DNA of 64,000 bases from Rhizophagus irregularis (Eukaryota): contig NC_089430.1 in assembly GCF_026210795.1 (NCBI RefSeq), positions 682,001 through 746,000 on the forward strand. The letters run 5' to 3'. Position 1 is the stretch's first letter. Each line of letters starts with the position of its first letter. The notes beneath the pieces are model-generated. The model did not search any database. It worked only from the letters and a program-made list of their open reading frames with translations, and was not told the origin of the DNA. The translations under genes were made by a program, and so were the position numbers. Below are positions 49 to 59,223 of this stretch, piece after piece.

Positions 49-804
49 ATGAAATTTTACAAAACTATTGAAGAATTAGATGACAAAGGAATAGAAGAAG
101 AGTTAAGAATATGGCATTATATGTATACAATAGAATGTCCAATGTGTAACAAAATAATATTAAAGAAAGAAGCAATAAAAGCGGTAGAATATAATAAAGA
201 ATTTATAGAAAGAATATGTAAAAGTTGTTATGAAAAAGAATTAGAAAATGTAGAAGATGAGAATGAATTAGATGATGAAACAGAAATAGAGAAAAAATTA
301 GAACAGTTAAAAAATCTAATCAAAATTTTAGAAATTTAAGTTTCTGATGGAGAATTATTAAGATTAATAAGTATGGGATATAGAGATGTTGATATATTAA
401 GTGCAGACTTTATAAGAAAATTTCAAGAATATAAAAATGAAACAGAAAAAGAAATAAGGAAAATATTAGATGAATATTTAAAGAAATTTGAAATTGAAGA
501 AAGTGAAGAAGAAGTTGAAAAAGAAAATGATGATACAAATGATTCAGAAAAGATTGGAGAAATATTAGATCCAGAAGAACATGAGATTTGGGAAGAAAAT
601 ACTGAAAGTTTTGATGAGAATGAATTTGAGAGCGAAAATGAAAATGTTATAAATACAGAAGGTTTTAGTTTAAGTCAAAATTCAGACTTGAATAATTCAT
701 TGAATATTGAAGATTCTGATAGTGAAAGTGAAATATCTGATTATAATTTACAAGATTTATTTCAAGAAAATTTATTATTAAACATGGCAACATACGTTAT
801 TTAA
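49..804 (+). pseudogene. Acidic ORF with CxxC...CxxC motif at the 5'/gag side of the Gypsy element, interrupted by an in-frame TAA
   Basis: ORFs 49-339 and 373-804 share a frame and are separated by one TAA (337-339). Motifs are CPMC and CKSC. The ORF runs into LTR-derived sequence at 785. Confidence 0.55.
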
Positions 805-849
805 TTTTAATATCCTATGGGTGGCGTGTCACATTTTTGGTGCATGCTC

Positions 850-1930
850 CGAGAATTATCAGCACATTTTGGGATTCAAGCTACATATGAAAAAGTAAAA
901 GAAAAATATTGGTGGAAGAATATGAAACGAGATGTAGAAAAATATGTAAAAAGTTGTGATAATTGCCAAAGAAGAAATAATCCACAAGGGTTACATGAAT
1001 TACATCCAATAGAAGTAAAAGAACCTTTTCATATGATTGGGATAGATGTGATAGGACCATTACCAAGAACAGAAGAAGGAAATAAATATATAGTAGTAGC
1101 AATAGATTTCTTTACGAAATGGCCAGAAGCAAAAGCAATAAAAGAAGCGAATGCAAAAGAAATATCAAAATTCATTTATGAAGAAATAATTTGTCGACAT
1201 GGTCACATGGATGTCCAAAGAAAATACTTACAGATAATGGATCAGAATTTAATAATCAATTAACTAAAAATCTTACCAAAAAATTTAATGTTCAACATAA
1301 ATTCTCAACTCCTTATCACCCTAAAACAAATGGATTAGTAGAACAATTTAATAAAACATTAATAGAATCATTGGCAAAATTAGTAAAAGAAAAATTAACG
1401 ATATATAGAAATAGAGAATATGAAGATAAAAATTGGGATCAAAGAATAGCACCAATATTGTTTGCATATAGAAGTAAAATACAGAAATCAAGTAAAATGA
1501 CACCATTTTATTTGACTTATGGAAGAAGAGTAATAATACCAAATGATGAAGAAGTTAAAGGAATTACAATGATTAAAAGAATAGAACATATAATAGAAGA
1601 ATTACCAATAAAAAGACATGAAGCAAAGAAGAATATTGAAAAAGCACAAGAACAACAAAAGAAATATCATGACAAAATTGGAAAACAAAAACAAAATTTT
1701 CAAATAGGAGATAAAGTATTATACTTTGATGCAGCAAAATACAAAACACATACAGGAAAACTAGAAGAAAAATGGAAGGGACCATATTATATACATGAAG
1801 TAATAATAAATGAATCGTACAAAATTAAAGAATTAAATGGAAGAATTTTAAGAAGACCACTCAGTGAATGGAGAATTATTAAAAGAATACTTTGATAGAG
1901 AAATATTTGAACCATATATAATAATATAAT
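850..1930 (+). pseudogene. Ty3/Gypsy integrase (HHCC zinc finger, rve core, GPY/F module), frameshifted
   Basis: Motifs SAHFG..YWW..CDNCQ, IGIDVIGPLP, DFFTKWPEA, TDNGSEF, PYHPKTNGLVE, TPFYLTYGR and WKGPYYI. There is a frameshift at a small duplication (catggtcacatgga, ~1198-1211) and another near 1860. Confidence 0.92.
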
Positions 1931-4369: not shown

Positions 4370-6172
4370 TAGTGCTCCGAAAAAAATCTGATCTGATCTG
4401 GGATCCGCAGATTTGATCCGAGCCAGATCGGTTCGGTTTTCAAAATTTTGATCCATAGATCAGATCGGATTTAAAAAAAATCTGATCTGATCAGATTCAG
4501 ATCGGATCAGATCAAACACGAGAAAATCTGATCTGATCTGAACAGATTTCGGATCAGATTTTTTTTTTAAATTTTTAAAAAAAATTCATTTTTTTTTTAA
4601 AAACCCTTTCCTGGATGAACGGACGCCGGACGACCAAGATTTAAAAGAACTAACTAGGTAAGTTCATTTCTTTTTTTTTGTTATTTTTACTTGAGGGAAC
4701 TTAATTAACGGTTCCCTTCTTTTTATTAGGAAGCCTGGACGAACGAAGCCTAACGACCAGGATTTAAAAAAAAAAGAACGAACCTATGGTGAGTTCGTTC
4801 TTTTTTTAAGTTTTTTTTTTATTTTTACTTAAGGGAACGTAATTAACGTTCCCTTTCTTTTTTTTAGGAAACCTGGACGTGGACGAAGCCATTAACGACC
4901 AGGATTTAAAAAGAACGAACTATGGTAAGTTCATTTCTTTTTTTAAGTTTTTTTTTTTAATTTACTTAAGGGAACGTAATTAACGTTCCCTTTCTTTTTT
5001 TTTTAGGAAACCTAGACGTGGACGAAGCCATTAATGTCCAGGATTTAAAAAAAGAACGAACTATGGTAAGTTCATTTCTTTTTTTAAGTTTTTTTTTTTA
5101 TTTTTACTTAAGGGAACGTAATTAACGTTCCCTTTCTTTTTTTTAGGAAACCTGGACGTGGACGAAGCCATTAATGACCAGGATTTAAAAAAAGAACGAA
5201 CTATGGTAAGTTCATTTCTTTTTTTAAGTTTTTTTTTTTATTTTTACTTAAGGGAACGTAATTAACATTCCCTTTCTTTTTTTTTAGAAAACCTGGACGT
5301 GGACGAAGTCGTTAATGACCAGGATTTAAAAAAAGAATGAACTATGGTAAGTTCGTTTCTTTTTTAAGTTTTTTTTTTTAATTTACTTAAGGGAACATAA
5401 TTAACGTTCCCTTTCTTTTTTTTTTAGGAAACCTGGACGTGGACGAAGCCATTAACGACCAGGATTTAAAAAAAGAACGAACTATGGTAAGTTCATTTCT
5501 TTTTTTAAGTTTTTTTTTTTAATTTACTTAAGGAAACGTAATTAACGTTCCCTTTCTTTTTTTAGGAAACCTGGACGTGGACGAAGCCATTAACGACCAG
5601 GATTTAAAAAGAACGAACTATGGTAAGTTCATTTCTTTTTTTAAGTTTTTTTTTTTATTTTTACTTAAGGGAACATAATTAACGTTCCCTTTCTTTTTTT
5701 TTAGGAAACCTGGACGAACGAAGTCGTTAAGACGTTAACGACCAGGATTTAAAAAAAAAGAACGAACTATGGTAAGTTTGTTTCTTTTTTTAGGTTTTTT
5801 TTTATTTTTACTTAAGGGAACGTAATTAACGTTCCCTTTCTTTTATTTTTAGGAAACCTGGACGCGAGACGAAGCTGAACGACCAGGATTTAAAAGAACG
5901 AACTATGGTAAGTTCGTTTTTTTATTTTTTATTTTATTTTTTTTTACTTTAAGGAACGTAATTAACGTTCCCTTTCCTTTTTTAGTACAAGGACCAGATC
6001 CGAACCAGATTCGGATCAGATTCAAATCGGATTCAAATGGATCCGAACCAGATTCGGATCAAATTGAACCAGATCTGATCAGATTCGGATCAGATCAGAT
6101 CTATTAAAATAAAAATCAGATCGGATCAGATTTAAGCTAAATCCGGTCTGAACCGATCTGTTAGGAGCACTA
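4370..6172. mobile_element. Non-autonomous hAT-type DNA transposon (~1.8 kb)
   Basis: TIR TAGTGCTCC...GGAGCACTA with a perfect 8-bp TSD GTTGAAAG (4362-4369 / 6173-6180). GATCAGATC/GATCTGATC subterminal motifs occur at both ends. Confidence 0.9.
4605..5990 (+). repeat. ~140-bp tandem array (~10 units) of exon+intron-like modules inside the hAT element
   Basis: Each unit reads TTTTTTAG|GAAACCTGGACG...GAACTATG|GTAAGT, followed by a T-tract and the palindrome GGGAACGTAATTAACGTTCCC. Confidence 0.9.
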
Positions 6173-7039: not shown

Positions 7040-8708
7040 ATAAAAATTAATATTCAAGTAGAATCAACCCGCCTGAACAACTTTCAATTAATAAATAAAG
7101 TTGATTTCATTTGTCCAAAGTAGATATATTACGCTCTAAATTAAAAAAAAAACAGAAAAGAGAGTTAATATCATTAAGAAAAATGCAATTTTCTTTAAGC
7201 ACTACACCTACATTCATGAAAATTAATATTCAAGTGGTTTCAACCCACCTGAACAATTTTTAATTAATAAATGAAGTTGATTTCATTTGTCCAAAATAGA
7301 GATATTACGCTCTAAATTAAAAAAAAAACAGAAAAGAGAGTTAATATCATCAAGAAAATGCAATTTTCTCTAAGTACTACACCTACATTCATGAAAATTA
7401 ATATTCAAGTAGAATCAACCCACCTGAACAACATTCAATTAATAAATAAAGTTGATTTCATTTGTCCAAAGTGGATATATTACGCTCTAAATTAAAAAAA
7501 CAGAAAAGATAAAGAGTTAATATCATCAAGAAAAATGCAATCTTCTTTAAGCACTACACCTATATTCATGAAAATTAATATTCAAGTAGAATCAACCCAC
7601 CCGAACAACTTTCAATTAATAAATGAAGTTGATTTCATTTGTCCAAAGTGGAGATATTACGCTCTAAATTCAAAAAAAAACAGAAAAGAGAGTTAATATC
7701 ATCAAGAAAAATGCAATCTTCTCTAAGCACTACATCTACATTTATGAAAATTAATATTCAAGTGCTTTTAACCCACCTGAACAACATTCAATTAATAAAT
7801 AAAGTTGATTTCATTTGTCCAAAGTGGATATATTACGCTCTAAATTAAAAAAACAGAAAAGATAAAGAGTTAATATCATCAAGAAAAATGCAATCTTCTC
7901 TAAGCACTACACCTATATTCATGAAAATTAATATTCAAGTAGAATCAACCCACCCGAACAACTTTCAATTAATAAATGAAGTTGATTTTATTTGTCCAAA
8001 GTGGAGATATTACGCTCTAAATTAAAAAAAAATAGAAAAGAGAGTTAATATCATCAAGAAAAATGCAATCTTCTCTAAGCACTATACCTATGTTCGTGAA
8101 AATTAATATTCAAGCAGAATCAACCCACCTGAACAACTTTCAATTAATAAATGAGGTTGATTTCATTTGTCCAAAGTGGAGATATTACGCTCTAATTAAA
8201 AAAAAAACAGAAAAAAGAGATATCATCAAGAAAAATGCAATCTTCTCTAAGTACTACATCTATATTCATGAAAATTAATATTCAAGCAGAATCAACCCAC
8301 CTGAACAACTTTCAATTAATAAATGAAGTTGATTTCATTTGTCCAAAGTGGAGATATTACGCTCTAAATTAAAAAAACAGAAAAGAGAGTTAATATCATC
8401 AAGAAAAATGCAATCTTCTCTAAGCACTACACCTATATTCATGAAAATTAATATTCAAGTAGAATCAACCCACCTGAACAACTTTCAATTAATAAATGAA
8501 GTTGATTTCATTTGTCCAAAGTGGAGATATTACGCTCTAAATTCAAAAAAAAACAGAAAAGAGAGTTAATATCATCAAGAAAAATGCAATCTTCTCTAAG
8601 CACTACATCTACATTCATGAAAATTAATATTCAAGTGCTTTTAACCCACCTGAACAACTTTCAATTAATAAATAAAGTTGATTTCATTTGTCCAAAGTGG
8701 AGATTATA
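7040..8708 (-). repeat. ~175-bp tandem array (~10 units) with minus-strand exon/intron signals
   Basis: Repeated AAAATTAATATTCAAG...TTGTCCAAAGTGGAGATATTACGCTCTAAATT unit. The minus strand shows TTAAC, a T-tract and TTTAG, then a 63-nt segment, then CAG|GTGGGT. Confidence 0.9.
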
Positions 8709-15948: not shown

Positions 15949-17581
15949 TTAATTTCCTCCATCTATAACAAAAAAATAGTTTAATTAAATTTAATAGATA
16001 AAAAAATCACATGCAAAGAAATTACCTTTAGAATTAATATCAAGTTTAGTAAAATCCATTTTTAAGGAATCTGTAAAATAAAGGAATAATTATTACTCTA
16101 AATAGAATTAAATAATTATTTTAATTAAAGTTACCTGAATATTCTAAATCAGTATTGTCTGCATTTTTGGGTTCTGGAAGATTTTTAAAATCCAAAAGAC
16201 TACTTGTATAAACTGCTTGAGGGTGTGTTGTATATAAGAGATTACTAGTAGATGATAATGGTGGTTGATCCATTGAAGATGACAAGTTTTTATTAATATC
16301 ATCTGTTTCTTTAACTTGCCTATAAATTACAGAATCCACTTTACTACTATTAATAGCAGCCCATAAACCATAAAATAACCTAGATAATTCATATGCATTA
16401 GGTCGTTTTAAAGGGTCTGCATTCCAACATTGATTAATAGTATCAAAAATTAATTGAGGAATTTTATAATTGGACTTTGGCCTCAACCCCTTGCAAATTT
16501 TCATTGCTAAAAATTCATCATGAGCTATATCATAATAAGGTGGGAAACCTGTACAAATTTCATATGCAATAATTCCATATCCATAAATATCACTTGCTTG
16601 TGTATATTCTTTTCCTCTTAAAACTTCTGGTGCTACATAAGGTAATACTCCATATATTTTTTTATTACTATTTTGAGAGAATCCGACATTTGCTGGTTGA
16701 CATAGTCCCAAATCAGTAATATAAGCTTGGCCAATAAAGTTACTTAATATATTCCCACAATGAAAATCATGATGAATTAAACCTTCATGATGAATATCTT
16801 TAAGACCATTTGCAACACTTTGTAAAATCATCAATTTTTGGCTCCAATTCAGTGAAATGAAATAGTTATTCAAATGTTGTCTTAAACTACCATCTTTTAA
16901 TTGCATCACCATCATAAAATTATTTGTTTTTGGATCTTTTGTAATACCAAAACAACAAACTGTCCAACCAGAATGATATACTAAAATATTTGATTCAACC
17001 TTAAAATAAAATTATACTAGTTAGTTTAACATTTATAAAGGATAATGAAGATTCATAAGAAAATATCTTACTTCTTTTAAAAAATCTGCTGTAATACCTT
17101 GTGAATTATATAAACATTTTAAAGCAACTTTTGTCTCACCATTTCTTTTCCACTGATTATTATCATAATTCCATCTCAAAATATTTCCATCTTTCCAAAC
17201 TGCTTTAAAAGTAGTTCCAAATCCTCCTTTTGCTAAATATTCAACATCTTCAAATTTATCATATTCAATCCACTCTATGATATGCCTTGGATCTTTAGCT
17301 TTCAATTGTGCTTTTTTAATAAATTCATCAACGTCATGATTTCCACTTGTCCAATTTTTGAAATTTTGTTTAAAATGCTGTAAAATACATGGCCAACAAA
17401 CACAATAACCAGTATTAGGCTGCTTACATTCTTTACATAAACCAAATACTTTATAAAGTTCTTTTAATTCTTTGTCTGTTATTAGTTTATCGATTAACGA
17501 TTCTTGTTCTTCGGTCAAATTATGATTGTCAAAATCTTTTATTTGTTCAAATACATCATCACTTAGTTTAATTTCAGCCAT
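15949..17581 (-). CDS. TKL-like Ser/Thr/Tyr protein kinase, 4 exons (17581-17072, 16999-16135, 16070-16025, 15962-15949)
   Basis: Motifs CKEC..CWPC, WTSGN, WIEY, AKGGFG, VALK, HHDFHCGN, DLG, YVAPE, SDIYGYG and CW. Canonical GT-AG introns join in frame. Confidence 0.9.
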
Positions 17582-18704
17582 TTTAATAAATAATTTATTA
17601 AACAAAAAAAAAGAAAGGAAAGAAAAAAGAAATAGTGGTTAAACGTTGCAATGATGTCGAGATCGGCAACAAATTATCAAAAAGACTATTAAAATACTAA
17701 AATACACAGAAACTCTAATCTTGATCGGCAATTAATTTATTCAATTTTGGCAATTGTGGCTTTTTATATAAATTCCCATAATAGGCAACGTGAGTTTAAG
17801 TTAAACTTTTACGAATGTTGAATATTACTAACCAAAATAGAATTTGAAAATTTGAGAAAGAATTCGTTAGTTTCTGTGGAATTGATATCGTATTAACAAA
17901 ATCCGAAAATAATTTATGGAGAATTGCGAATAATAATATATCTTTATAATATATATATAGTATATATATATTAAAACAAAATTATTTTGAAATATTTACA
18001 AAATCTTGTTTTTGACTTCAAATTTTCACTAAATTTTCATTTGAAAATAATTAATAAATAAATAAAATCACATCTTTAATAAAAATGTGAAATTTTAATA
18101 TTTAATAAATTCATAAATTATTGATAGACCTTTATTTAGAATATATCATATAATTTGAGCTTCAGGTTTGTAATAATAAATTGCATTTTATTAGTACTTA
18201 TCCCAGTTTTTTATTGGCTAAATTCCAGATCACATGATATAGAATCAGCTCAGAAAATTGAAACAAAATCATGTGATTGTCGAGTATCAGCACCATATGT
18301 AGATTATGAAATTACATAATATAATTTTAAAAATTATGGTAATGATGTAAAAGTTTATTCTACATGATCACCACTTTAGATGTAACAGATGTAACTGATC
18401 ATTTCCAAGTTGGTTTTAACAAAAAAAGTGCGAATTAAGAAAATGTTTTTTTCATGATTTTTGCTGTGTAACAATGAGGCTTGATGATTCATGATTGACA
18501 CACATTTCAGATATATGTGCAAAATTTGTTGTTGTACATAATGCTTGTACTTATGATCAACACTTTTGCGCATAATGCATTTTGCATAAATATTATTACC
18601 ATATATATATACTTATAAAGGTGTTTAATAATAAAAAAAAAGAAAAAAAGAATATTTACATTATCTTTTCCAGTCAGAAAGAATTTTAATATAATTGTAT
18701 AGTA

Positions 18705-21700
18705 ATGGATGATAAAGGTAATAATCAATATATAATATAAACATTTAATACAATTAGAATTCTAATATTTTTAAACAAATTTACAATATAATAAAACTAG
18801 TTTCTAGTAATATTGAATTTGAAGGAAGCAGTACTAAAGAATTTGAAGGAAATAGCTCTAAGGAATTCAAAGAAAGTGGCTTTGAAGAATTTGCAAAAAG
18901 CAGTACCAAGGAATCTAAAGGTATATTAAGCATGTAAAAATATTAAGTTTTTATATTTAAATACTATCTATAATAATTATATCTTATATAATATACAAAT
19001 ATAGCTCGTAAGTTAATATAGGTTATCTTATAACTGAATAATAATGGAATTACTTATCATTTTTATCACATTTCATGTAATTAAATAATTCATTTAATGG
19101 TTTAGTTGGTAAGTTATTAGTTATTTAAGTTATTAATTCTTTATTTTGTTATTTTGCATAATATTCAAATAACTAAATTGAGTAAATTCTTTATTTAATT
19201 AACTATTTAATAATTAATTGTGTTACAGAAGGTAAGTTACAATATCATATTTATTTGTTTAATATTTATATAACTTAACTAATTATATTCTTAATTTAAA
19301 TAACTAGATTGTAAGTGATATATTTATTTACAGTAATTACTTTTATATTATATTTATATTTAACTAATACAGTAATTAATTAATAATACTAGGGTGTAAG
19401 TTATAGAATACTTACATTTCTATTATTTAAATTAACTAAATTAACTAAATTCTTTATTTAAAAAATTATTTTGTAATTTCTTTAGTTGGTAAGTTATAAG
19501 TTATTTATTCATAATAATTACATATAATTTAAACTAACTAAATTTTTTATTTAAACAGATCGTAAGTTATAATTTATTTATTTAATTCTATTATTACTTA
19601 TTGTTATAATATTTTACATATAATTTAAACTAACTAAATTCTTTATTTAATAAATTATTTAATAATATAGATAGTAAGTTATTTAATTCTTGTTATAATA
19701 TTTAAATGTAATTTAAATTAACTAAATTCTTTAATTAAAAAATTATTTTCTAATTTCTTTTAGTTGGTAAGTTATAAGTTATTTATTTAATTCTATCATA
19801 ACTCATTGTTGTGATATGTACATATAATTTAAACTCACTAAATTCATTATTTAAAAAATTATTTAATAATATAGGGAGTAAGTTATTTATTTAATTCTAT
19901 TATTACTAAGGATGCTCATTGGTCCTAAAAGATCATGGTCTTACAGTCTTACACCTTGAAAAGACAAACCAGTCCATCTTGGTGTAGGACTGTGGTCTTT
20001 CAGCCCTATATCACATACAATAAGACCATCAGTATTTTTAAGAACCACAGTCTTTTTAAGACTGATCAGTTTTTTTTGCTTTTTTTTTTTGCAAACAAAA
20101 AAATTTTTTGAGCTTTAAATTTAATATAAAATCATTTATTATGAGAAGACCAGTATGAGGACTGGTCAGTCCTCAGGACCAGTCCTACTGCACACAAAAA
20201 AATGCAAAACCGTGGTCTGGTCCTACAAGTCCTGGGACTGACCAGTCTAGGGTTGAGTAGGACCAGTAGGACCAATGATCATCCTTATTAGTTATTACTT
20301 ATTGTTATAATATTTGCACATAATTTAAACTAACTAATTTCTTTATTTAAAAAATTATTTAATAATATAGAGAGTAAGTTTTTTATTTAATTCTATTATT
20401 AACAATTGTTATAGTATTTACATATAATTTAAACTGACTAAATTCTTTATTTAAAAAATTATTTAATAATACAGGGAGTAAGTTATTTATTTAATTCTAT
20501 TATTACTTATCATTATAATATTTGCATAAAATTTAAACTAACTAAATTCTTTATTTAAAAAATTATTTAATAATATAGAGAGTAAGTTATTTATTTAATT
20601 CTATTATTACTTATTGTTATAATATTTACATATAATTTAAACTAACTTATTTCTTTATTTAAAAAATTATTTAATAATATAGGGCGTAAGTTATTTATTT
20701 AATTCTATTATTATTGTTATAATATTTACATATAATTTAAACTAACTAATTTCTTTATTTAAAAAATTATTAAATAATATAGAGCGTAAGTTATTTATTT
20801 AATTCTATTATTACTTATTGTTATAATATTTATATATAATTTAAACTAACTAAATTCTTTATTTAAAAAATTATTTAATAATATAGAGAGTAGTAAGTTA
20901 TTTATTAAATTCTATTAATATATTATTTTAATTTAACTATTACATATAATTTAATTAGACTAACTATAATATTTACATATAATTTAAACTAACTAATTCT
21001 TTATTTAAAAAATTGTTTAATAATATAGAGAGTAGTAAGTTATTCATTAAATTCTATTATTATATTATTTTAATTTAAATATTACATATAATTAGACTAA
21101 CTATAATATTTACATATAATTAAACTAACTAAATTCTTTATTTAAATAGATTGTAAGTTATAAGTTATTTCTTTAATACTATTATTCCTTATTGTCATAA
21201 TATCCACATAGAAATTTAAACTAACTAAATTCCTTATTTAAAAAATTATTTTGTAATTTCTTTTAGTTGGTAAGTTATAAGTTATTTATATAATTTGATT
21301 ATAACTCATTGTTATAATATTTACATATAATTTAAACTATCTAAATTCTTTATCTAAAAATATTATTTTATAATATAGGAAGTAAGTTATTTATTTAATT
21401 CCATTATTACTTATTATTACAATATTTCATATAATTTAAACTAATTAAATTCTTATATGATTTTGCTATTGCTTATTGTTATGATATTTACATATATTTA
21501 AACTAACTAAATTCTTTATCTAAAAATTTATTTAATAATATAGGGAGTAAGTTATTTATTTAATTCTATTATTACTTATTGTTATAATATTTTATATAAT
21601 TCAAACTAACTAAATTCTTTATTTAAATAGATTGTAAGTTATAAGTTATTTATTTAATTCTATTATTACTTATTGTTATAATATTTGCACATAATTTAAA

Positions 21701-24700
21701 CTAACAAAAATTCGTTATTCAAAAAATTATTTTGTAATTTCTTTTAGTTGGTAAGTTATAAGCTATTTATTTAATTTTATTATTACTTTTTGTTATAATA
21801 TTTATATGTAATTTAAACTAACTAAATTCTTTATTTAAAAAATTATAGAAAGTAAGTTATTTACTTAATTCTATTATTAACTATTGTTATAATATTTAAC
21901 TAAATTTTTTATTTAAAAAATCATTTAACAATATATTTACTTGTACTATTATTACTTATTGTTATAATATTACATATAATTTAAACTATCTAAATTCTTT
22001 ATTTAAATAGATCGTAAGTTATAAATTTTCATTTAATCCTATTACTATTACTTATTGTTACAATATTTACATATTAAAAAAATATTTTGTAATTTGTTTT
22101 AGTTGGTAAGTTATAAATTATTTACTTAATTCTATTTTATAATGTTTACAAATAATTTAAACTAAATAAATTCTTTATTTAAATAGATCGTAAGTTATAT
22201 TTAATTCTTGTAATATTTTACATATTATTTAAACTAACTAAATTCTATTTAAAAATTATTTAATAATATAGAGAGTAAGTTTTTATTTAATTCTGTTATT
22301 ACTTATTGTTACAATATTTATATATAATTTAAACTAATTAAATTCTTTATTTAAAAAATTATTTTGTAATTTCTTTTAGTTAGTAAGTTATAAGTTATTT
22401 ATATAATTCTATTATTACTTATTGTTATAATATTTACAAATAATTTAAACTAACTAAATTCTTTATTTAAAAAATTATTTTGTAATTTCTTTTAGTTAGT
22501 AAGTTATAAGTTATTTATTTAATTCTATTATTATTTATTGTTATAATATTTACATATAATTTAAACTTACTAAATTCTATTATTTAATAGATCGTAAGTT
22601 AAAGTTATTTATTTTAATTCTATTAATACTTATTGTTATAATATTTACATATATCTAAACTAACTATAATATTTACTATGTATAATTTAAATTAATTATA
22701 ATATTTACATATAATTTAAACTAACTAAATTCTTTATTTAAATAGATTGTATGTTATAAGTTATTTATTTAATTCTATTATTACTTATTGTTATAATATT
22801 TAATATGATTTAAAACTAACTAAATTCTTTATTTAAAAAATTATTTTATAATTTCTTTTAGTTGGTAAGTTATAAGTTATTTGTATAATTTTATTATTAC
22901 TTATTGTTATAATAATTACATACTATTTAAACTAACTAAATCTTTATTTAAAAAATTATTTAATAATATAGGGAGTAAGTTATTTATATAATTCTATTAT
23001 TACTTATTATTATAATATTTACATATAATTTAAACTAACTAAATTTTTTATTTAAATAGATCGTAAGCTATAAGTTATCATTATATAATTCTATTATTAC
23101 TTATTTGTTATATAATTTAAACTAACTAAATTTTTTATTTAAAAAATTATTTTGTAATTTCTTTTAGTTGGTAAGTTATAAGTTATTTATTTAATTCTAT
23201 TATTACTTATTGTCATAATATTTACATATAATTTAAACTAATTATATTCTTTATTTAAATAGATCGTAAGTTATAAGTCATTTATTTAAATCTATTATTA
23301 CTTATTGTTACATTATTTACACATAATTTTAAAAAATTATTTTGTAATTTCTTTAGTTGGTAAGTTATTAGTTATTTATTTAATTCAATTATTACTTATT
23401 GCTATGATATTTATACTATATAATTTAAACTAACTAAATTCTTTATTTAATAATATAGAGAGTAAGTTATTTATTTAATTCTATTATTATTTATTGTTAA
23501 TATTTACATGTAATTCAAACTAACTAAATTCTTTATTTAAAAAAATTATTTAATAATATAGGGAGTAAGTTATTTATTTAATTCTATTGTTACTTATTGC
23601 TATAGTATTTACATATAATTTAAACTAAATAAATTCTTTATTTTTATTTAAAAAATTATTTTGTAATTTCTTTTAGTTGGTAAGTTATAAGTTATTTATA
23701 TAATTCTATTATTACTTATCATTATAATATTTACATATAATTTAAACTAACCAAATTCTTTATTTAAAAAATTATTCATTTAGTTGGTAATTTATAAGTT
23801 ATTTATTTAATTCTATTATTTACTTATTGTTATAATATTTACGAATAATTTAAACTATAATATTTATACATAATTTTAACTAATTTTAATATTTTATATA
23901 TGATTTAAACTAACTAAATTCTTTAATTAAATAGATCGTAAGTTAAAGTTATTTATTTTAATTCTATTAATACTTATTGTTATAATATTTATATATAATT
24001 TTAAACTAACTAAATGCTTTATTTAAAAAATTATTTAATGATATAGGGGGTAAGTTATTTATTTAATTCTATTGTTGTTATAATATTTACATATAATTTA
24101 AACTAACTAAATTCTTTATTTAAATAGATCGTAAGTTATAAGTTATTATATAATTCTATTATCACTTATTGTTATAATGTTTACATATAATTTAAATTAA
24201 CTAATCCTTTATTTAAAAATATTTAATTATATAGAGAGTAAGTTATTTATTTTATTATATTATTATTTATTGTTATAATACTTAAACTAACTATAACAGA
24301 TAATATTTACATATAATTTAAACTAACTATAATATTTATACATAATTTTAACTAATTTTAATATTTTATATATAATTTAAACTAACTAAATTCTTTAATT
24401 AAATAGATCGTAAGTTAAAGTTATTTATTTTAATTCTATTAATACTTATTGTTATAATATTTACATGTAATTTAAACTAACTAAATTCTTTATTTAAATA
24501 GATCGTAAGTTCTAAGTTATTATTTAATTCTATTATTACTAATTGTTATAATGTTATCATATAATTTAAACTAACTAAATTCTTTATTATATTTAATAAT
24601 ATAGGAAGTATGTTATTTATTTAATTCTATTGTTACTTATCATTATAATATTTATATATCATTTAAACTAACTAAATTCTTTATTTAAAAAAATTATTTT

Positions 24701-27700
24701 GTAATTTCTTTTAGCGGGTAAGTTATAAGTTATTCATTTAATTCTGTTATTATTTATTATTATAATATTTACATGTAATTTAAACTAATTTAATTCTTTA
24801 TTTAAATAGATGGTAAGTTATAAGTTATTATATAATTCTATTACCGTATTTTGCGGTAAGTAAGCACCCCGAAAATAAGCACCCCGGCCAGAATTATGGC
24901 GATTTTGGCCAAAATTATGAGGATCTTGGACGGCATTAAGTGCAAAAGGGGATGCTTATATACCACAAAATATGGTATTACTTATTGCTATAATGGTTAC
25001 ATATAATTTAAATTGACTAAATTCTTTATTTAAAAACTTATTTCATAGCTAGTAAGTTATTTATTTATAATTCTATTATTACTTATTGTTATTATATTTA
25101 CATATAATTTAAACTAACTAAATGCTTTATTTAAAAAATTATTAAATAATATAGGGAGTAAGTTATTTATTTAATTCTATTATTACTTATTGTTATAATA
25201 TTTACATATGATTTAAACTAACTAAATTCTTTAATTAAATAGATCGTAAGTTAAAGTTATTTATTTTAATTCTATTAGTACTTATTGTTATAATATTTAT
25301 ATATAATTTTAAACTAAATTATTTAAAAAATTATTTAATGATATAGGGGGTAAGTTATTTATTTAATTCTATTGTTGTTATAATATTTACATATAATTTA
25401 AACTAACTAAATTCTTTATTTGAATAGATCGTAAGTTATAAGTTATTATATAATTCTATTATCACTTATTGTTATAATGTTTACATATAATTTAAATTAA
25501 CTAATCCTTTATTTAAAAATATTTAATTATATAGAGAGTAAGTTATTTATTTTATTATATTATTATTTATTGTTATAATACTTAAACTAACTATAACAGA
25601 TAATATTTACATATAATTTAAACTAACTAAATTCTTTATTTAAATAGATCGTAAGTTATAAGTTATTATATAATTCTATTATCACTTATTGTTATAATGT
25701 TTACATATAATTTAAACTAACTAAATCCTTTATTTAAAAATATTTAATTATATAGGGAGTAAGTTATTTATTTTATTATATTATTATTTATTGTTATAAT
25801 ATTTAAACTAACTATAACAGATAATATTTACATATAATTTAAACTAACAATAATATTTGTACATAATTTTAACTAATTTTTAATATTTATATATAATTTA
25901 AACTAACTAAATTCTTTAATTAAATAGATGGTAAGTTATGTTATTTATTTAATTCTATTATTACTTATTGTTATAGCATTTACATATAATTTAAACTAAC
26001 TAAAATTCTTTATTTAAATAGATTGTAAGTTATAAGTTATTTATTTAATTCTTGTTGTAATATTTATATATATTTTGACTGACTAAATTCTTTATTTAAA
26101 TAGATTGTAAGTTATAAGTTATTTATTTAATTCTATTATTACTTATTGTTGCAATATTTATATATAATTTTGACCGACTAAATTCTTTATTTAAATAGAT
26201 TGTAAGTTATAAGTTATTTATTTAATTCTATTATTACTTATTTTTATAATACAGTGACACCTTTCTAAGTGCACTCCCTTTGGTATTATAATAAAAAATA
26301 GTAGAATGTGCAGTGTGCATTTATAGAAAGTAAAATATTAAGAGCTCTAATAAGTTGGTACCAGTCCCACTGCACTTAAAGAGAATTTGTATAGTACATG
26401 CACTTATAGAGGGTGCACTTATAGAGGTGTCACTGTATTTACATATAATTTAAACTAACTAAATTTTTTATTTAAATAGATTGTAAGTTCTAAGTTATTT
26501 ATTTAATTCTAATATTACTTATTGTTATAATATTTACATATTGATATAATTTGGGCTAACTAAATTTTTTATTTATAAAAATTATTTAATAATATAGCTT
26601 GTAAGTTATTTGTTGTTTTTATTATTATATATTTATAAATATTTATTTGTTAATTGAATTCTATTCATATAAAATTTCTGTTACTTTAGTTGGTAAGTTG
26701 TGAAATATAGGCTATTATCATATATATTTATATGCAAAACTAAACATATATTATAATTAATTTCTATTTAAATTTTAGAGTAAGTAGTGTTGATTTTAAT
26801 CTTAAATTTAGTGTAATTTTTAATATAACTTTAATAATTATTTTAATTGTTTAATATATATATATAGATATGGAAAAAGTGGAAATACAATTATAGATAA
26901 TTTTATTTTAGAAAAAAAGTTAAAATGGATTCCCTACGATGAATTTAAAGATGTTAAATATCTTGATAAAGGAGGATTTGGTACTATATACAAAGCTATT
27001 TGGTATTATAATCATAAAGAAGTAATTCTTAAGTGTCATAATAATTTAAATGAAAATTTAAATGAATTTTTAAATGAAGTATGATAATATATTATTTATT
27101 TTTTAATTTGAATTATAATTTATTTATACTAATATATTATCACTTTTTTATAGTGGGAATATCATGAAAGTTGTTTAAATTCACATGATATTATTTATTT
27201 TTATGGGTTTACAAAAGATCCAGATACTTTAAAATATATGGTAGTAATGGATTATGCAAATAAAGGTAATTTAAGAAGAAACTTAACAAGAATAATCAAA
27301 AGTGGTTGGTATCAAAAATTATATATGTTATTTGGAATTATTTCTGGACTTAATGATATACATGAACAAAATCTTATCCATTGTGACTTTCATGATGGCA
27401 ATATTTTAAGACATAGTGAAAAAAAAATTTATATTAGTGATTTAGGATTATGTAAACCTGTAAAATCATTTTTGAAAGAATATAAGATTTATGGTGTTAT
27501 ACCATTTATGGCACCAGAAGTTTTAAGAGGCAAACCTTATACTCCAGCTAGTGATATATATAGTCTTTCTATGATTATGTGGGAATTTACATCTGGGACA
27601 CCTCCATTTAATAATAGAGCACATGATTTACAACTTAGTTTAAGTATTTGTGAAGGTGAACGTCCTGAAATTATTGAAGATACTCCACAATGTTATGTAG

Positions 27701-28065
27701 ATTTGATGAAAAAATGTTGGAATGAAAACCCATCAAAAAGGCCATCTTCTAAAAAAGTGTTAAATATTATTAAAAAATGGATTTCTCTTTCTGATAATGT
27801 CAAAATTGAAGATATTAATGAAGAATTAAAATGCAATATTATGGAATTTATAAATGCACCAATTGGGCATAACAATAATCTTGCTACTGAATCTCACCCA
27901 CAGGCATATTATACAAGTCGCTTACTTAGTTTTACTAGTAAACAGTTAAATGAAATTCTCAAAAGTAGAGATTTGCAAGTTTATTATTCAAGTCGATCTA
28001 TTAGTGAAAAAGTGAATGAAATTCTTGAAAGTGAAGATTTACAAGCTAGTGTAAAAAGTGAATAA
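18705..28065 (+). CDS. TKL-like protein kinase with a microexon-encoded N-terminus (~71 exons, ~486 aa predicted)
   Basis: Exons are 18705-18717 (MDDK), 18801-18920, ~66 microexons in 19005-26692, a 1-nt exon at 26779, then 26868-27078 (YGKSGNTIIDNFI..WIPY..KGGFG..VILK) and 27154-28065 (HCDFHDGN, DLG, FMAPE). Phases are consistent and no stop appears. The kinase portion is high confidence; linkage to the upstream exons is inferred. Confidence 0.75.
19907..20287. mobile_element. MITE (hAT-like termini) inserted in an array intron
   Basis: TIR TAAGGATGCTCATTGGTCCTA / TAGGACCAATGATCATCCTTA with many AGGACC/GGTCCT/CAGTC subterminal motifs. The TSD is not clean. Confidence 0.75.
24844..24975. mobile_element. 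Tc1/mariner-pogo-like MITE in an array intron
   Basis: TA TSD and TIR CCGTATTTTGCGGTA..TAAGCA / TGCTTA..TACCACAAAATATGG. Confidence 0.8.
26252..26435. mobile_element. Tc1/mariner-pogo-like MITE in an array intron
   Basis: TA TSD and TIR CAGTGACACCTTTCTAAGTGCAC / GTGCACTTATAGAGGTGTCACTG. Confidence 0.85.
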
Positions 28066-28540
28066 AATGCTACCAGTAAGTAAAGATTAGTATATAAAAA
28101 GAATTAATTTTGCAATTATTTATGTAAAATTAATTTTATTTATTTAATTATTTAGATATTAAAACTGATAAAAAATAACTAGTAAATATTGGTGTTTATA
28201 AGAATTTATAGTTTTTTTATAAGTGATATTTGATGTCATGCATTTAACAGAAATTATTGTTTAGATTTATTTAAACACTAAAGCTAGAGTACTAGTAAAA
28301 TATTTTACAATATTCTTAGTTTGTAATTTAAATAATTCCTTTTTTTATATCTTATTCATATATGTATTTTCTTTTTTTTGAATTATTTAAACACTAAGGC
28401 TAGAGTAGTAAAATTTTACAAATTTCTTAGTTTGTAATTTAAATAAATCTTTTTTTTTAGCTTTCCAATTATTAAATATAACTAGAAATGTGTCTAATAC
28501 CAGGGACTCCATCCCTGGACAACCTTGTCAGTAATGTCAA

Positions 28541-28824
28541 CCCTATAAAAAAAGAAAATTCGGAATTTGTCCTGAAAAGTATGGAAAATGTCCGGAAATT
28601 TTCCATGCGTCCGGAAAACATTCGGAAACGGTCATGTTTTGGAACATTTTCCGGACGCTCGATTCTGGACAAATTCTGGAGTGTCAAGAAAATGTCTGGA
28701 ATTTGTGCGTCCGGAAAATGTTCCAAAACGTGACCGTTTCCGAATGTTTTCCGGACGCACGGAAAATTTCCGGACATTTTCCATACTTTTCAGGACAAAT
28801 TCCGAATTTTCTTTTTTTATAGGG
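28541..28824. mobile_element. Foldback MITE, CACTA/EnSpm-like (CCC termini)
   Basis: Near-perfect ~284-bp palindrome CCCTATAAAAAAAGAAAATTCGGAA...TTCCGAATTTTCTTTTTTTATAGGG with 3-bp TSD CAA and many TCCGGA motifs. Confidence 0.9.
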
Positions 28825-33875: not shown

Positions 33876-36800
33876 ATGTCAGAAAAAGTATTGTGTAAAT
33901 GTTTTATTTGTAAAGCAAAAAACCCTGAATTAGGCGGTAAGTATCATACCTTTCCAACTGTAAAAAAGCATAGAAAAAAAGAACTTGAATGGATAAAAAA
34001 TACAAATATGAATAGCCAAAGTATTGAAGTAAGGTGAGTTTTTTCAGTTTAATACTAAGTAAACTAAAAACTTAACTAATTTTTATTTATATTAATAAAA
34101 GTGATAGGGGCGATAATATACAATTTCAAGATTTTTATCAAAATACTGATTTAACTATGGATGAGTTTCATGATAAATTATTACAAGATAATAATTTAAA
34201 TAATGATAATGACTTACAAGATTTAAGTGACAATGATAACTCGCTAGATGATAACAATTATGATAACTTAGAGGATTATGAAAATTCAAGTGATGGTAGC
34301 TTAAAGGATTATGAAAATTCAAGTGATGGTAGCTTAGAGGATTATGAAAATTCAAGCAATGGTAGCTTAGAGGATTATGAAAATTCAAGCAATGGTAGCT
34401 TGCAAGATGATTATTATATGCAAGAATTAGATCAAGAATATAATAATTATGATGCACAAGAAACATCATTTACGGACGACTTAAATAATAGTAAGCTTTG
34501 ATTTATATCTTTATATTATATTTAAATAATAGCTTATATAGTATTGCTAACGAAATTTCAACTTATATAGATGACTTCAAATTAAATATATCTCAAGACT
34601 TGGCACAAGCATTACGACTTTTTGAAATTAAAGTTCGATGCAATTTAACTGATAACGCATTGAATCAGATCATGAGAGCAAGCAATATTTCAATCAGTAT
34701 TTATCAAATAAAAAAAACATTAAAAAAATTGGTAAATACTGAACCACAGTGGATTGATATGTGTATTAATTCCTGTTGTGCATATACAGGACAATTTGAG
34801 AATGAAATGCTATGTCCTTATTGCAATAAATCTAGGTATGATCAAAAAAAAACCGCGTTACCAATTTGCGTGTTTTTCCCTTATAAAGCATTTAAAAATA
34901 CAATATGAGAATCCAAATTGTGCAAATGAGTTACGTTATCAATATATATACATAACATGTAATGGATTTGGCGAAGATGGTAAAATAGGAGATGTATTTG
35001 ATGGAAAATGTTATTTAGATCTTTTGAAAATAGGATAAATTCAAGATGAGCATGATATTGCTTTAACTGGCTCTGTAGATGGTTATCAGATCTTTCGTCA
35101 AAAAACTGAAACTTGCTGGATATTATTATTTATCAATGCAAATCTTTCACCAGAAAAATGGGTACTTAAGGAAAATTTATTAATTACATCAATAATTCCT
35201 GGACCAAAGGAGCCAAAAGATTTTAACTCATTCATGAATCCAATAGTTGATGAACTTAAGGAATTAGCCAGTTAAGTTTTATTTACAATTATAATTATTA
35301 TAATGTAATTAAATAATTAAACTATTTTTAATTAAAATCTTTTATCTTATAAAGGAGGTACTGACTGTATAGATGGCAATACCAAGAATCATTTTATTTT
35401 AAAAGCACATGTTTTGTCATGGTCGGGTGATACACCTGGCCTGACAAAACTAAAGTGTTTTACTGGCCATAATTCATATAAGGGATGTCGCTATTGTAAT
35501 ATTAAAGGAATCTGTGTAAAACATGTATACTTTTCTACCATTCCTCCGATAGGATCCAATAATTTAATGAGCTACGATGCAAATAATTTACCCTTAAGAT
35601 CACATGAAGAATATGAAAAAATAATACGAAATTTAAATTGTATAATAACACAACAAGCAATTGAATCTTTACAACGAAATTATGGTAAGTTTTTATTAAT
35701 CTATTATAATAAATATACTATCTAATAATAATATATATTAACTATAATATCAGGAATAAAAAATCAAAGTATATTATATGATCTACCTTCAATCAAATTT
35801 CCATCTTCTTTTGCATTAGATATAATGCACCTAATGTTTGAAAATGTTGCAAAATATATGGTTAAGCATTGGTTTGGTGTATTTTTCAAAAATGTTGGCG
35901 AAAATAGTAATAAACCATATATACTTAATAAAACTATATGGACCGAAATTGGAAATCTAATGCATACAGCTCGTAAAATGATTCCATCTTATCTTGGACG
36001 CCCACCTCGTAATATTACTCTTTATTATAATAGTTATAAGGCAGAAGAATGGATGGCCTGGATTATTATGTATTCCTTACCTTTGTTAAAAGATAAGCTT
36101 TCAATAAAATATTATGAAGGTTGGGCTTTATTTGTTAAAGCAGTTAGATTATGTAAAAAATTATGTTTATTTGAAGAAGATATATCAGAAATTAAAATTT
36201 TATTATTAAATTTTTATAAGCATTACGAAAAGTAAGTATACATTAATTTATTTAATTAATTTTTAAAAAAATTAATAATATTATTTAATGCAAAATATTT
36301 ATTATATTTCATTATAATATTTTAAATTAATATTTTTATTACTTTATTTTATTTGTAGAGAATATTATGGCGGTATTAAAGAAAATATCAGTGCAATAAA
36401 ACTTTGTTTTCATTACTTATTACATGTAACTGATAGTATTAGAAATACAGGTCCTTGTTGGGCCACTTGGCAATTTCCCATGGAGCGTATATGCGGAATG
36501 TTAATTCCATTGGCAAAATCATGTTTACATCCCTATAAAAATATTATTAATAACGTATATCTTATGGAATTATTTAACCATCTCCCTTATCATGAAATTT
36601 ATCAACATGTTTTTTTATCAAAATCATCTCCAAAGCAATATGCTCAGCATTTAATATATACTGATGAATATTATTTTGAAGAATTTTATTTTCCTACTAA
36701 AAAACATATTCTTTCACAAATTCAACTTAAAAAAATAAAAGAAAATTTATCAACATCATATAATAATATAACTGATTTAAATTTAAATGTAAGTACAGTT

Positions 36801-37380
36801 TGATTAAATATTATTATCATATTTTAATTTTCAACTATTTTTAAATATATTAACTATTAATTTATTTAGAGTTTACCAAAAGAAGGTATAATGTATGGAC
36901 GGATGTTAACCAAAAATAAATATTTTATTGGATCAAAATGGATTAATAAGAATAATGATTGGGCAAGAATTAATCATACTGTAAAAGTAAATATTCCAGT
37001 TTTATATATTATTGTAGTGTTTATTAATTATAATAAATTACAATATTTTTATTTTATATATTTTTTAGGTACAAATTGAAGTTGATAAATGGGCGAATTT
37101 CAAATATCGCGAATCTGAATTTGTAACAAAAACTTTTTATGGAATTATTGAATTCTTTTTTTTATATGAATTTAATGATCAAAAAAAAATGTTAGCGTAT
37201 ATTCAGTGGACAAAACCAGTTACTGAAGATAATGTAGGAGTATTATTATTTAGTGGATTTAGTTATTATGATTTTATAAGAGTATCAGCTATTGATTGTT
37301 GTGTTGGCTTTTTTCCATTAGGAAATAAATATTGTATTATAGATAGAGATAAGGATATAGCTGAAATTTCAAAAGATTAG
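33876..37380 (+). pseudogene. CACTA/EnSpm Tnp2 (Transposase_21-like) transposase, multi-exon, inactivated
   Basis: Motifs MSEKVLCKCFIC, IDMCINSCCAY..CPYC, DVFDG, SVDGYQIF, IIPGPKEPKDFNSF, GDTPG..GHNSYKGCRYC, DIMHLMFENV, RPPRNI..YKAEEW and HYLLH..GPCWATWQFPMER. There is a frameshift in the A-run near 34850 and a TAA at 35036-35038. Confidence 0.9.
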
Positions 37381-45046: not shown

Positions 45047-45769
45047 TTTGTAAATGAGAAATCCGGATACTTTCCGGATAATGTTCTGAAAATGTCTGCA
45101 AAATGTCCCAAAAGTATCCCGATTTTCATATTGATTTTCCGTTGTTTAAAGTTTTGGACAAAATATGGACAAATACCGGACAAAAACTAAAACCAGTACA
45201 AATTCCGGACAAAATGAGTGTCCGGAAACGAGTGTGTTTTTGGAACATTTTCTGGACAAACATATGTCCGGAATTTGTATTGATTTATTCCGGACATTTT
45301 CTTTGACATTTTCCGGACATTTATTTTTTATAGGGTAGGTTGTTTCAGTTTGTTGCTTTAGAGTCTTCTTTTTTTGTAGGTCAGTTTTGGATTTATTTTG
45401 TTGTTTTGGTTTCTTTTTCATCAGATGCTTCATAATTTTTTTCATTTATGTAGGTCAGACATTCTGGAGTTCTCTTTCTTTTTTTGTAGGAATGCTGACC
45501 TTTGGTGACTTGGACGATTGCAGATACTATATGAAGGGGGGGGGTTTTGTTTCCAATTAAGCTAGACATTCTTATGTTTCTTTTTTTGTTATTTGACTCC
45601 AAATGAACCTGAACTTATAGATAATTTTGGTTGCAATAGGTGGTTTTAATAAGGAGGGAATTTTCATAATGTATTTGTATTTTGTTTATTTTTTATTTTT
45701 TATTTAATTTAATAAAGTAAAATTAGATTTATGTAAATATAATTATAGTAAACTGTAATACAAATAGTA

Positions 45770-46818: not shown

Positions 46819-47134
46819 AAAAAAACTTCTAATGCCAACTTTTCGCAAAAACTCTTCCTGTGCCACTAAAAGTCCCTGTTAAATTGTTGCATCATTCAAT
46901 ATTTGTATAATTTCATTATTTTGTTGATCATTAAAATTTCATAAAATATTGCAAAAAAATAAAAAAATTGTAAAAAAAACGTTTCAGCGTTTTTTCATAT
47001 AATATTATTAAAAAAAATGCCAAAAACTTTTTTTTTTGCATTACTATTAAGAAAAAAACATTTTGGCATTTTTCCATATAAAATTATAAAAAAAATAACA
47101 CAAAAACGTTTTTTCTTCATTTTTTATTTTTTTA

Positions 47135-48697
47135 ACAAAAAATGTCAAGACTGACGTTTTTAATTAAAAAAAACCAATATTTTTTTGATTTTTAATCACA
47201 AAAATGTCAAGTCTGACGTTTTTAATTAAAAAATCATTTTTTTTGATTTTTTAATCACAAAAATGTCAAGTCTGACGTTTTTAATCAAAAAAATCATTTT
47301 TTTTGATTTTTTAATTACAAAAACGTCAAGTCTGACATTTTTAATTAAAAAAAACCAATATTTTTTTAATTTTTATTTTTTAATCACAAAAATGTCAAGT
47401 CTGACGTTTTTTAATTAAAAAATCATTTTTTTGATTTTTTAATAACAAAAACGTCAAGTCTGATGTTTTTAATCAAAAAAATCATTTTTTTTGATTTTTT
47501 AATTACAATAACGTCAAGTCTAACGTTTTTAATCAAAAAAATCATTTTTTTTTTGATTTTTTAATTACAAAAACATCAAGTCTGACATTTTTAATCAAAA
47601 AAATCATTTTTTTGATTTTTTAATTACAAAAACGTCAAGTCTGATGTTTTTAATTAAAAAAAACAATATTTTTTTGATTTTTAATTACAAAATGCCAACT
47701 GCCAAGTCTGACGTTTTTAATTAAAAAATCAATATTTTTTTGATTTTTAATCACAAAAACATCAAGTCTGACATTTTTAATTAAAAAAAACCAATATTTT
47801 TTTTGATTTTTAATCACAAAAACGTCAAGTCTGACGTTTTTAACTAAAAAAATCAATTTTTTTACAAAATTGTCAAATCTAACGTAAAAAATAATTTTTT
47901 GAATCATAAAAATGTCAAATCTGACGTTTTTAATTAAAAAATCATTTTTTTTTTATTTTTAATCACAAAATTGTCATGACTGACGTTTTTAACTAAAAAA
48001 ATCATTTTTTTTGATTTTTTAATTAAAAAACGTCAAGTCTGACGTTTTTTAACTAAAAAAATCATTTTTTTTGATTTTTTAATTAAAAAACGTCAAGTCT
48101 GACGTTTTTTAACTAAAAAAGTCATTTTTTTGATTTTTTAATTACAAAAACGTCAAGTCTGACGTTTTTTAACTAAAAAAGTCATTTTTTTGATTTTTTA
48201 ATTACAAAAATGTCAAGTCTGACGTTTTTTAACTAAAAAAGTCATTTTTTTGATTTTTTAATTACAAAAACGTCAAATCTGACGTTTTTAATTAAAAAAA
48301 TCATTTTTTTTATTTTTAATCACAAAAATGTCATGTCTGACGTTTTTTAACTAAAAAAGTCATTTTTTTTGATTTTTTAATTACAAAAACGTCAAGTCTG
48401 ACGTTTTTTAACTGAAAAAGTCATTTTTTTTTGATTTTTTAATTACAAAAACGTCAAGCCTGACGTTTTTTAACTAAAAAAATCATTTTTTTGATTTTTT
48501 AATTACAAAAACGTCAAGCCTGACATTTTTTAACTAAAAAAATCATTTTTTTGATTTTTTAATTACAAAAACGTCAAGCCTGACGTTTTTTAACTAAAAA
48601 AGTCATTTTTTTGATTTTTTAATTACAAAAACGTCAAGTCTGACGTTTTTAATAAAAAATCAATTTTTTTTATATTTAATTATAAAAACGTTTGATG
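47135..48697. repeat. ~57-60-bp double-palindrome satellite (~26 units)
   Basis: Unit AAAAACGTCA-AGTC-TGACGTTTTT plus AAAAAATCA-Tn-TGATTTTTT. Confidence 0.95.
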
Positions 48698-57662: not shown

Positions 57663-59223
57663 AATGTAATCAATAAGAAAGAAAGATATAATTATTTTAA
57701 GTTCGTTACTACGAGATAAATTAGTAAAATGCAAATTGTTGATCAAACTTCATGCCCACATAAATTTTGTGATCTTGAGGCGTAGTATTTTACGCCTCAT
57801 AATCAAAAAAAGAAAAATATTATCGTACTTCAGTTTCTAATTTTAATTTTATTTATTTATTTTTTTTCAGCAAATACAATTTGTGTTTAACAAATTTGAT
57901 ATACTTAATGAATAGATAATATTCAGTTCCTTGATTATATTGATTAATATTCAAATAATTTAGTAAACGAAAATCAATGATTGTTATTCAACAGATTATT
58001 AATTTGTAGTTATTTTTAAATCTTACTTAAAAAACAATATATTGTTGATGAACGGGACAATTTTTCTTTAGTTATTTTAAATTGAATTTATTTTAAATAA
58101 ATAACATGGTGAATAATGAACATGAAAGATTATTAAGTAATCATTCAACTTATTATTCTACTAAAAAAGTCTATATATTATAATGATAGGTTTGAATAAA
58201 ATATATATGGTTAGTAAAAAAAAAAAAATAAATGAAGAGATAATTACATCATTATGTGTGTTACTTTAACAATTTAGTATAAATAATGAATAGATCAGGC
58301 GTAGGGATTTTCATATTATGGCACGATTTTCATATAAATTCTTACGTATTTTATTTATCGATAATCTGTGAAGTCTAACTTTATTTTGCATAATCTGGCG
58401 TTTAGAATAGCCTCCATGTAAATAATTTGAATTGTGTAATAAGATTTTTATATCAAGAATGGTTACTCGTGAGATTTAGTACATCATTGTCAACCAGATA
58501 AAGAAAGCTTTTAAGATGAAGTTTGGATCATCTATCCATTTAGTTTGTGGGCTTGACCGAGATGAGCAAAACTTAAATGACAAGAATGGGCTCTATTAAT
58601 AACCGTAGACTGATATTATAATAACTAAACTATTGTACTACTAAACAATCAATGAATCGATAAATGAAACTTTTTATGGCAAAAATGGTTCATTTTACTA
58701 TATCGATGCCAATGCAATGTTAAATGTGTGAATTTTCTATCATTGTTGATTAAAGTACTTCATTTATAGCGAGAATGAACATGCATAAGCTATACTATTC
58801 TGAGATTTATAAAAGCAAGAGTATAAGCGTGACATATCTGCCGATCCGCAGAACGCATAGCATCGAATTATCACTTGCATTCTGCAGATCGGTTAATATA
58901 AATGCAACGTGACTGACTTTCAAAATTAAGGAAATAAAGAAATACATATACCATAAATGTCAGATAATTTTACAGAAGTTTTTAGAGAAGTTTTTAACTG
59001 ACATAATTCATAATTTTTTTTTTATATATTTATGGATTTACGACAATCAAGTGAACTAATTGATATTATCGGAATTGTGATTTTTTTTTTTAGGGTCGTT
59101 TATTGTAAATCGCCCTATTAAATGATTTATTACAGATTTACAGGGTGTGTTTTGTCCGAAAAATGTTGAGGTAATATACAGAAAATGTACCGAGAATGCC
59201 GAAAGAAAAAAAAATACACTATA

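Follow-up and report, generated by a model that had tools for sequence, protein, structure and literature searches.

The closest described counterparts of the locus analysed here are the nank genes of Tuber melanosporum, in which alternatively spliced exons of 3 bp are reported to number in the tens or dozens (PMC4986451, PMC13449251, PMC9815663). Exons of a single nucleotide (nt) are described, in the accessible portions of the sources, in Arabidopsis (PMC4674806), in CYP621A of Fusarium (PMC12940212), and in Coprinopsis cinerea, for which 13 exons of 1 nt and 27 of 3 nt are reported in 26 genes (bioRxiv 10.1101/2024.05.10.593147). We have studied a kinase gene located at positions 18705 to 28065 (plus strand) of a 64,000-nt stretch of genome (contig NC_089430.1 of assembly GCF_026210795.1, positions 682,001 to 746,000; hereafter the window), in which a row of 66 predicted exons of 3 or 6 nt, followed by one of 1 nt, stands ahead of the kinase domain. 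The window belongs to Rhizophagus irregularis, a root-symbiotic arbuscular mycorrhizal fungus. On balance, we consider it probable that the gene is a transcribed Rhizophagus kinase in which an N-terminal segment of 68-69 residues is encoded by 66 codon-sized exons and the 1-nt exon, and that the row varies this peptide.

The likeness to the nank genes consists of tens of consecutive 3-bp exons that preserve the reading frame, in an expanded family of a mycorrhizal fungus. As far as the partial text of the nank papers goes, the differences are that nank proteins are NLRs (NACHT plus ankyrin) while the present protein is a kinase; that the nank array lies in the C-terminal recognition domain and ours is N-terminal to the catalytic domain; that Ascomycota are involved in one case and Glomeromycota in the other; that our array closes with a 1-nt exon; and that extensive alternative splicing is reported for nank, whereas here we have one skip against three reads with full inclusion. 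Since the layout is shared but NACHT and ankyrin are missing, the gene is built like a nank gene without being a member of that family. The layout of codon-sized exons is therefore already known, contrary to the initial annotation, which knew of no description and had named the micro-exon genes of Schistosoma as precedent; nank is the closer match. In the literature searched, which comprised mostly papers outside subscription and no supplements, we found no description of microexon arrays in Glomeromycota, kinases included.

Other systems are more distant. The 1-nt exons of Arabidopsis, Fusarium and Coprinopsis are likewise required for the frame and seen in RNA; in the text available they are isolated, whereas here the 1-nt exon stands at the end of 66 consecutive microexons. 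In the micro-exon genes of Schistosoma, short symmetric tandem exons of 6-36 nt can be skipped in frame; they encode the greater part of a secreted protein that has a signal peptide. The exons of the present gene are also symmetric multiples of three, but they are mostly of 3 nt, form a small part of the coding sequence, and stand ahead of a kinase. At recursive splice sites and in stwintrons an exon of zero length, or a transient one, is absent from the mature mRNA, unlike here, where the triplets are kept in RNA; unit 3 alone could act as an AG/GT site. Introner-like elements are near-identical introns dispersed over unrelated genes; within the window the present units occur solely in tandem.

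Architecture of the gene and of its microexon array

The full model comprises 71 exons and 70 GT..AG introns, and yields 1461 coding nt and 486 amino acids with no internal stop, reproducing the kinase product first proposed. Exon 1 (18658..18717, partly seen in RNA) contributes 13 coding nt (18705-18717) from the ATG at 18705 to a phase-1 end. Exon 2 (18801..18920) is acidic and Ser/Glu-rich, contains a degenerate 24-nt repeat and also ends in phase 1; similar N-termini are found in the paralogues P0010, P0016, P0026 and P0034. By eye, the N-terminus is acidic and has no hydrophobic run. The array (19005..26692) is followed by the single-nucleotide exon (A, 26779..26779), by the exon of the kinase N-lobe (26868..27078), recognized from its Gly-rich loop GGFG, its VILK lysine and an RNA joint, and by the last exon (27154..28065), which holds the C-lobe (HCDFHDGN, DLG, APE; motifs and Pfam), the tail and the stop codon.

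A regular-expression parse of 18921-26760 identifies 66 microexons. Of these, 64 measure 3 nt and two measure 6 nt (both AGAGTA, at 20887 and 21029), and complete introns of about 100 nt flank each of them. The microexons total 204 nt, or 14% of the 1461 coding nt. The number agrees with the initial count of some 66 tiny exons, two of which are thus longer than a codon, and the parsed peptide matches the one first read. The donors after the microexons are GTAAGT in 62 cases, GTATGT in 2, GTAAGC in 1 and GTAATT in 1; the acceptors before them are TAG in 63 and CAG in 3. The 65 introns between microexons range from 70 to 493 nt (median 101; 70-120 nt in 55), and 49 of the 65 have a branch-like CTRAY motif 15-55 nt from the 3' end. 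All 66 microexons are symmetric (3 or 6 nt, phase 1-1), and because the exons are in phase 1 each array codon straddles two of them. The encoded segment of about 68-69 residues lies ahead of the kinase domain and is hydrophilic, with 36% of D/E/K/R. The array contains 61 instances of the motif YAG-NNN-GTAAG, against a single further one on the plus strand of the 64 kb and none on the minus strand; such a density is not a product of chance.

Omission of the 1-nt exon at 26779 leads to a stop at residue 122, and this exon is therefore needed for the frame; omission of the whole array leaves the frame open. The junction to the kinase read in the initial annotation implies this exon, which was nevertheless not listed there. 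The open frame by itself is weak evidence for coding: with the order of the microexons shuffled, the stop-free outcome in the window has P=0.076. We have consequently discarded stop avoidance, which is not significant, as a proof of coding.

RNA at the two ends of the array

We found 24 sequencing runs and aligned 6 of them, to the two flanks of the array only; X1, X2, X23 and X24 bear on the 3' flank, and X1, X2, X5 and X24 on the 5' flank. X24 is on record as polyA RNA-seq. The 30 letters of the unaligned end of reads or contigs were compared with the predicted string of microexons.

Transcription is directly observed, and so is splicing of the 1-nt exon and of the array at either end, as had been predicted: ordered triplets occur in RNA behind exon 2 and before 26868. 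At the 3' end, a contig of X1 (study P1) covers 26868-27078 with 0 mismatches and extends 156 nt upstream; the 30 letters before 26868 are made up of the final 2 nt of unit 57, followed by units 58-66 and then by the 1-nt exon. At the 5' end, a contig of X5 (study P3) joins exon 1 (18658-18715) to exon 2 and continues for 159 nt, of which the first 30 are the predicted units 1-10; the same GT..AG joint between exons 1 and 2 is present in 10 reads of X24. The consensus of 6 polyA reads of X24 (study P12) behind exon 2 also gives units 1-10, with an agreement of 0.89; since some X24 reads differ on exon 2, they are a mixture of alleles or paralogues. A contig of X2, with 0 mismatches on exon 2, gives units 1, 2 and 4-11, unit 3 being absent. 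None of the 30-mers read in RNA is contiguous in the window DNA, and these intron-less joins therefore cannot stem from DNA of this locus. Altogether 20 of the 66 units are seen whole in RNA (1-11 and 58-66), and unit 57 in part; the search of X1 on the 5' flank returned no match and is uninformative.

The absence of unit 3 from the X2 contig may have more than one cause. Microexon 3 (AAG, 19229..19231) is the sole unit ending in AG (CAG-AAG-GT), and would be lost if splicing proceeded to the second AG; the contig may reflect skipping, such a shift to the second AG, or an allele from which the unit is missing.

Further reads come from related genes. The joint from 26779 to 26871 is seen in X2, X23 and X24, and the GT..AG joint 27078-27154 in 26 reads of X23 and 34 of X24, mostly of related genes. 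In 55 reads of X23 and 73 of X24, likewise from related genes, the final two triplets and the A are those of the present gene, and the letters upstream of them are mixed (agreement 0.68-0.70). Some related-gene reads still carry the intron that precedes the 1-nt exon and are already joined downstream (26779-26871, 26587-26872), a pattern that would fit a stepwise removal of the introns.

The array could in principle be a satellite, sitting in one long intron or between two genes, with splice-like motifs inherited from the copied unit. It does score as a tandem repeat in a tandem-repeat scan, exon 2 joined to the 1-nt exon would also be open, and the equivalent exons are adjacent in several database models (for example P0016). 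With ordered triplets in RNA at both ends, however, we regard this as extremely improbable: the loose ends behind 18920 in X2, X5 and X24 all begin with the first triplets and none with the kinase exon, and for units 1-11 and 58-66 the RNA joins refute it.

It is likely that the row is spliced as predicted at both ends and all the way through. Three observations count against this. Units 12-56, or 45 of the 66, lie outside the stretches read in RNA; X1, X2 and X5 are presumed to be RNA without being recorded as such; and the contigs of X2 run 242 nt past exon 2 and 213 nt before 26868, against 202-205 nt predicted, an excess of which retained introns could be the cause. These over-long contigs misfit one fully spliced string and, with the related-gene reads that keep an upstream intron yet are joined to the kinase exon and with the low depth (contig depth 6-16), they leave some room for a gene in which the ends are spliced but the middle mostly fails, giving retained introns and stops, as an expression throttle or in the course of decay. 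Against such a failure, which we hold to be improbable, stand the 486 open codons, the intact kinase motifs and the absence of broken splice sites at 54 unit ends (see below); in addition, the 159 nt of X5 and the 156 nt of X1 would overlap within the spliced string if all units were included.

Turnover of the units and proposed variation of the peptide

The units fall into three acceptor types that are tied to types of triplet: ATN; TTG/TTA; GGA/AGA and kin. A block of several units is repeated at an offset of 1300 from 24019 (region of units 44-47 versus 55-58), and units 46 and 57 have identical introns. As this block repeat shows, the array has expanded through duplication, both in tandem and of whole blocks, in which intron and codon multiplied together. 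Three inserts have entered its introns: one at 19909..20285, with terminal inverted repeats and flanking TA, before unit 11, which we take to resemble a miniature inverted-repeat transposable element; one at 24844..24975, with inverted ends (limits by eye) and flanking TA, before unit 52, which is not among the 25 longest inverted-repeat pairs found; and one at 26252..26435, with terminal inverted repeats and flanking TA, before unit 64.

When unit ends were located by flanking context alone, 54 were found (61 units in range), and all 54 keep AG..GT; at the intron rate about 9.7 broken sites would be expected versus 0 seen, a rough figure because the units are related. Judging from this comparison the splice sites appear to be under selection. 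Two TA..AA matches of the strict flanking-context scan are branch boxes and were set aside.

In our proposal, each unit is a triplet with its own complete intron of about 100 nt; the introns would be recognized singly and removed in turn, and the whole row would be included in the main mRNA. With exons in phase 1 whose lengths are divisible by three, a unit can be gained, lost or skipped without a shift of frame and with a change of one or two residues; 63 of the 66 single-unit skips are stop-free. Variation could then arise from two sources, namely the turnover of units and rapid divergence of triplets at the level of the genome, which the comparison of units supports, and exon skipping in the RNA, for which there is one observation. 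The varied hydrophilic peptide would likely tune binding or sensing by the putative kinase. The diversifying role of the array is what we infer from these features as a whole. As regards the use for variation already suggested in the initial annotation, the support so far is one contig that is short of one exon.

The rate of change of the triplets was estimated from 19 nearest-neighbour pairs of units with 3-nt exons and an intron identity of at least 90% (units 1, 11, 52 and 64 were excluded, the last three because of the inserts). The triplets differ at 17 of 57 positions versus 87 of 1928 intron positions, in a comparison that is biased in so far as the pairs were picked by intron identity and share members. 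That bias is one of several points that weigh against a role in variation. Gene conversion of the introns, or CpG decay at the ATC/GT boundary, may add to the excess in the triplets. Inclusion is full over the stretches read in X1, X5 and X24, and the one skip is in one assembled contig. Random skipping would be costly, with 76% of the products open at 10% skipping and 38% at 50%. Finally, with eight metagenome arrays added, stop avoidance has P=0.136, which is not significant.

The same observations can be accommodated by an array that is spliced almost constitutively and arose incidentally, through unequal crossing-over of the intron-codon unit within a tolerant linker of low complexity; selection would then act on splice sites and frame only, and the variation of the peptide would have no role. 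Full inclusion in X1, X5 and X24 agrees with this, as do the lack of significant stop avoidance and the hydrophilic character of the peptide; the sole skip, moreover, hits the sole unit with a second AG, and may therefore be splicing noise. We nevertheless consider a neutral origin unlikely, if deserving of serious attention: the triplets change several times faster than the neighbouring intron sequence, the array layout is kept in kinases that are 41-55% identical to a close paralogue, and similar arrays stand beside a NACHT-ankyrin gene and GTPase-like genes.

Kinase family, related arrays and implications

On the last exon, Pfam returns kinase families only, with nearly equal scores for Pkinase (E 2.4e-33) and PK_Tyr_Ser-Thr (E 1.8e-32). 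There are 1525 protein matches, and among the matches listed all those with a species name are from Rhizophagus, with identities up to 86%. The catalytic loop has HCD, common to 106 of 120 matches; non-RD kinases are often linked to immunity. The gene resembles the expanded kinases of Rhizophagus in the shared Pkinase/PK_Tyr_Ser-Thr domain, in the catalytic motifs and in its close Rhizophagus homologues; an expansion of tyrosine-kinase-like kinases in Rhizophagus irregularis is stated in the part of PMC4219462 available to us (citing Tisserant 2013).

The expectation that annotation would overlook the gene is borne out: the database record for the window protein is P0001, a 275-residue piece of the last exon, and pieces of paralogues similar to exons 1 and 2 stand as separate hypothetical proteins. 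By eye, the protein searches gave no record of the correctly framed array peptide, and none of the database N-termini compared has a phase-1 array peptide like that of this gene. Stretches rich in G/L/I/M/R are present at the N-terminus of 6 of 120 matches and of 2 of 69 further ones. This alphabet is that of the array triplets in phase 0, to which it fits at 90% in the window, versus at most 56% in kinase-domain windows; such N-termini of paralogues may be arrays translated in the wrong frame, although the indication is indirect.

Three other kinase genes of the same broad family are located in the window at 16121-17638 (minus strand), 56304-57749 (minus strand) and 60429-62151 (plus strand). 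They have Cys-rich N-terminal stretches and no microexon array, and their N-terminal exons have no Pfam match.

Metagenome contigs were scanned for three chained units, which gave at least 106 stretches, and 104 loci were examined. Chains of at least 5 varied triplets occur in 22 of the 104 among the matches listed, of which L054, L075 and L089 look like simple repeats; many other scanned loci are plain repeats. Six AT-rich loci are homologous to the window array (65-69% identity). In three loci (L006, L063 and L018) the array joins a kinase in phase 1 and is stop-free; these are the kinases 41-55% identical to a close paralogue, and by eye their arrays occupy the place of the Cys-rich stretch of the other window kinases. 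In L043 a kinase fragment lies downstream of the array.

Arrays were also encountered with other hosts. In L025 (5565-8174, plus strand) 27 codon-sized exons lie directly behind a hydrolase-NACHT-ankyrin gene (Pfam) and are stop-free in phases 0 and 2, so that the nank arrangement recurs in another fungus. L038 (7300-11093, plus strand), L035, L077, L010 and L076 contain arrays with 10-34 varied triplets; those of L038, L035 and L077 stand behind a P-loop GTPase-like gene (weak Pfam match for L038, by eye for L035 and L077), and in L010 and L076 the downstream text is similar to these by eye. The GTPase-like genes may be another family that hosts the cassette of codon-sized exons. In L022, L028, L049, L072 and L103, whose contigs have a GC content of 33-57%, the arrays comprise 13-28 varied units of 3 nt.

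The remainder of the window is rich in repeats and in remnants of elements. Broken retrotransposon-like open reading frames, with an integrase core below the Pfam cut-off, are located at 340-1895 (plus strand); tandem arrays with matches of about 90% at 4672-5983 (period 140, 9.4 copies) and 7043-8704 (period 176, 9.5 copies); reading-frame fragments resembling a DNA-transposon gene by eye, three of them without Pfam match, at 34076-37380 (plus strand); and two blocks of a 60-nt tandem array, together with about 25 copies, at 47120-48691. Two related repeat-rich stretches, at 28472-28822 (with overlapping reading frames on both strands) and 45146-45445, contain words of the type TCCGGAAA and are likely the end of a mobile element.

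A broader view can be offered only tentatively: arbuscular mycorrhizal fungi might possess a hidden repertoire of kinases with an N-terminal sensor peptide written one codon per exon, in which duplication and combinatorial skipping would act as a diversifier for nonself recognition, and fungi might repeatedly have attached the same cassette to NLRs, GTPase-like genes and kinases.

At the level of the transcript, an RNA-supported row of 67 consecutive exons of 1-6 nt is a natural test of the spliceosome with exons far below its footprint. At the level of annotation, the results suggest mis-annotation of the N-termini throughout an expanded kinase family of the model mycorrhizal fungus, with gene models that are truncated, split, or made of triplets read in the wrong frame. 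If skipping were common, the row would be a testable source of protein diversity in plant symbionts, and the nank mechanism would be extended to a second phylum and to a different class of proteins.

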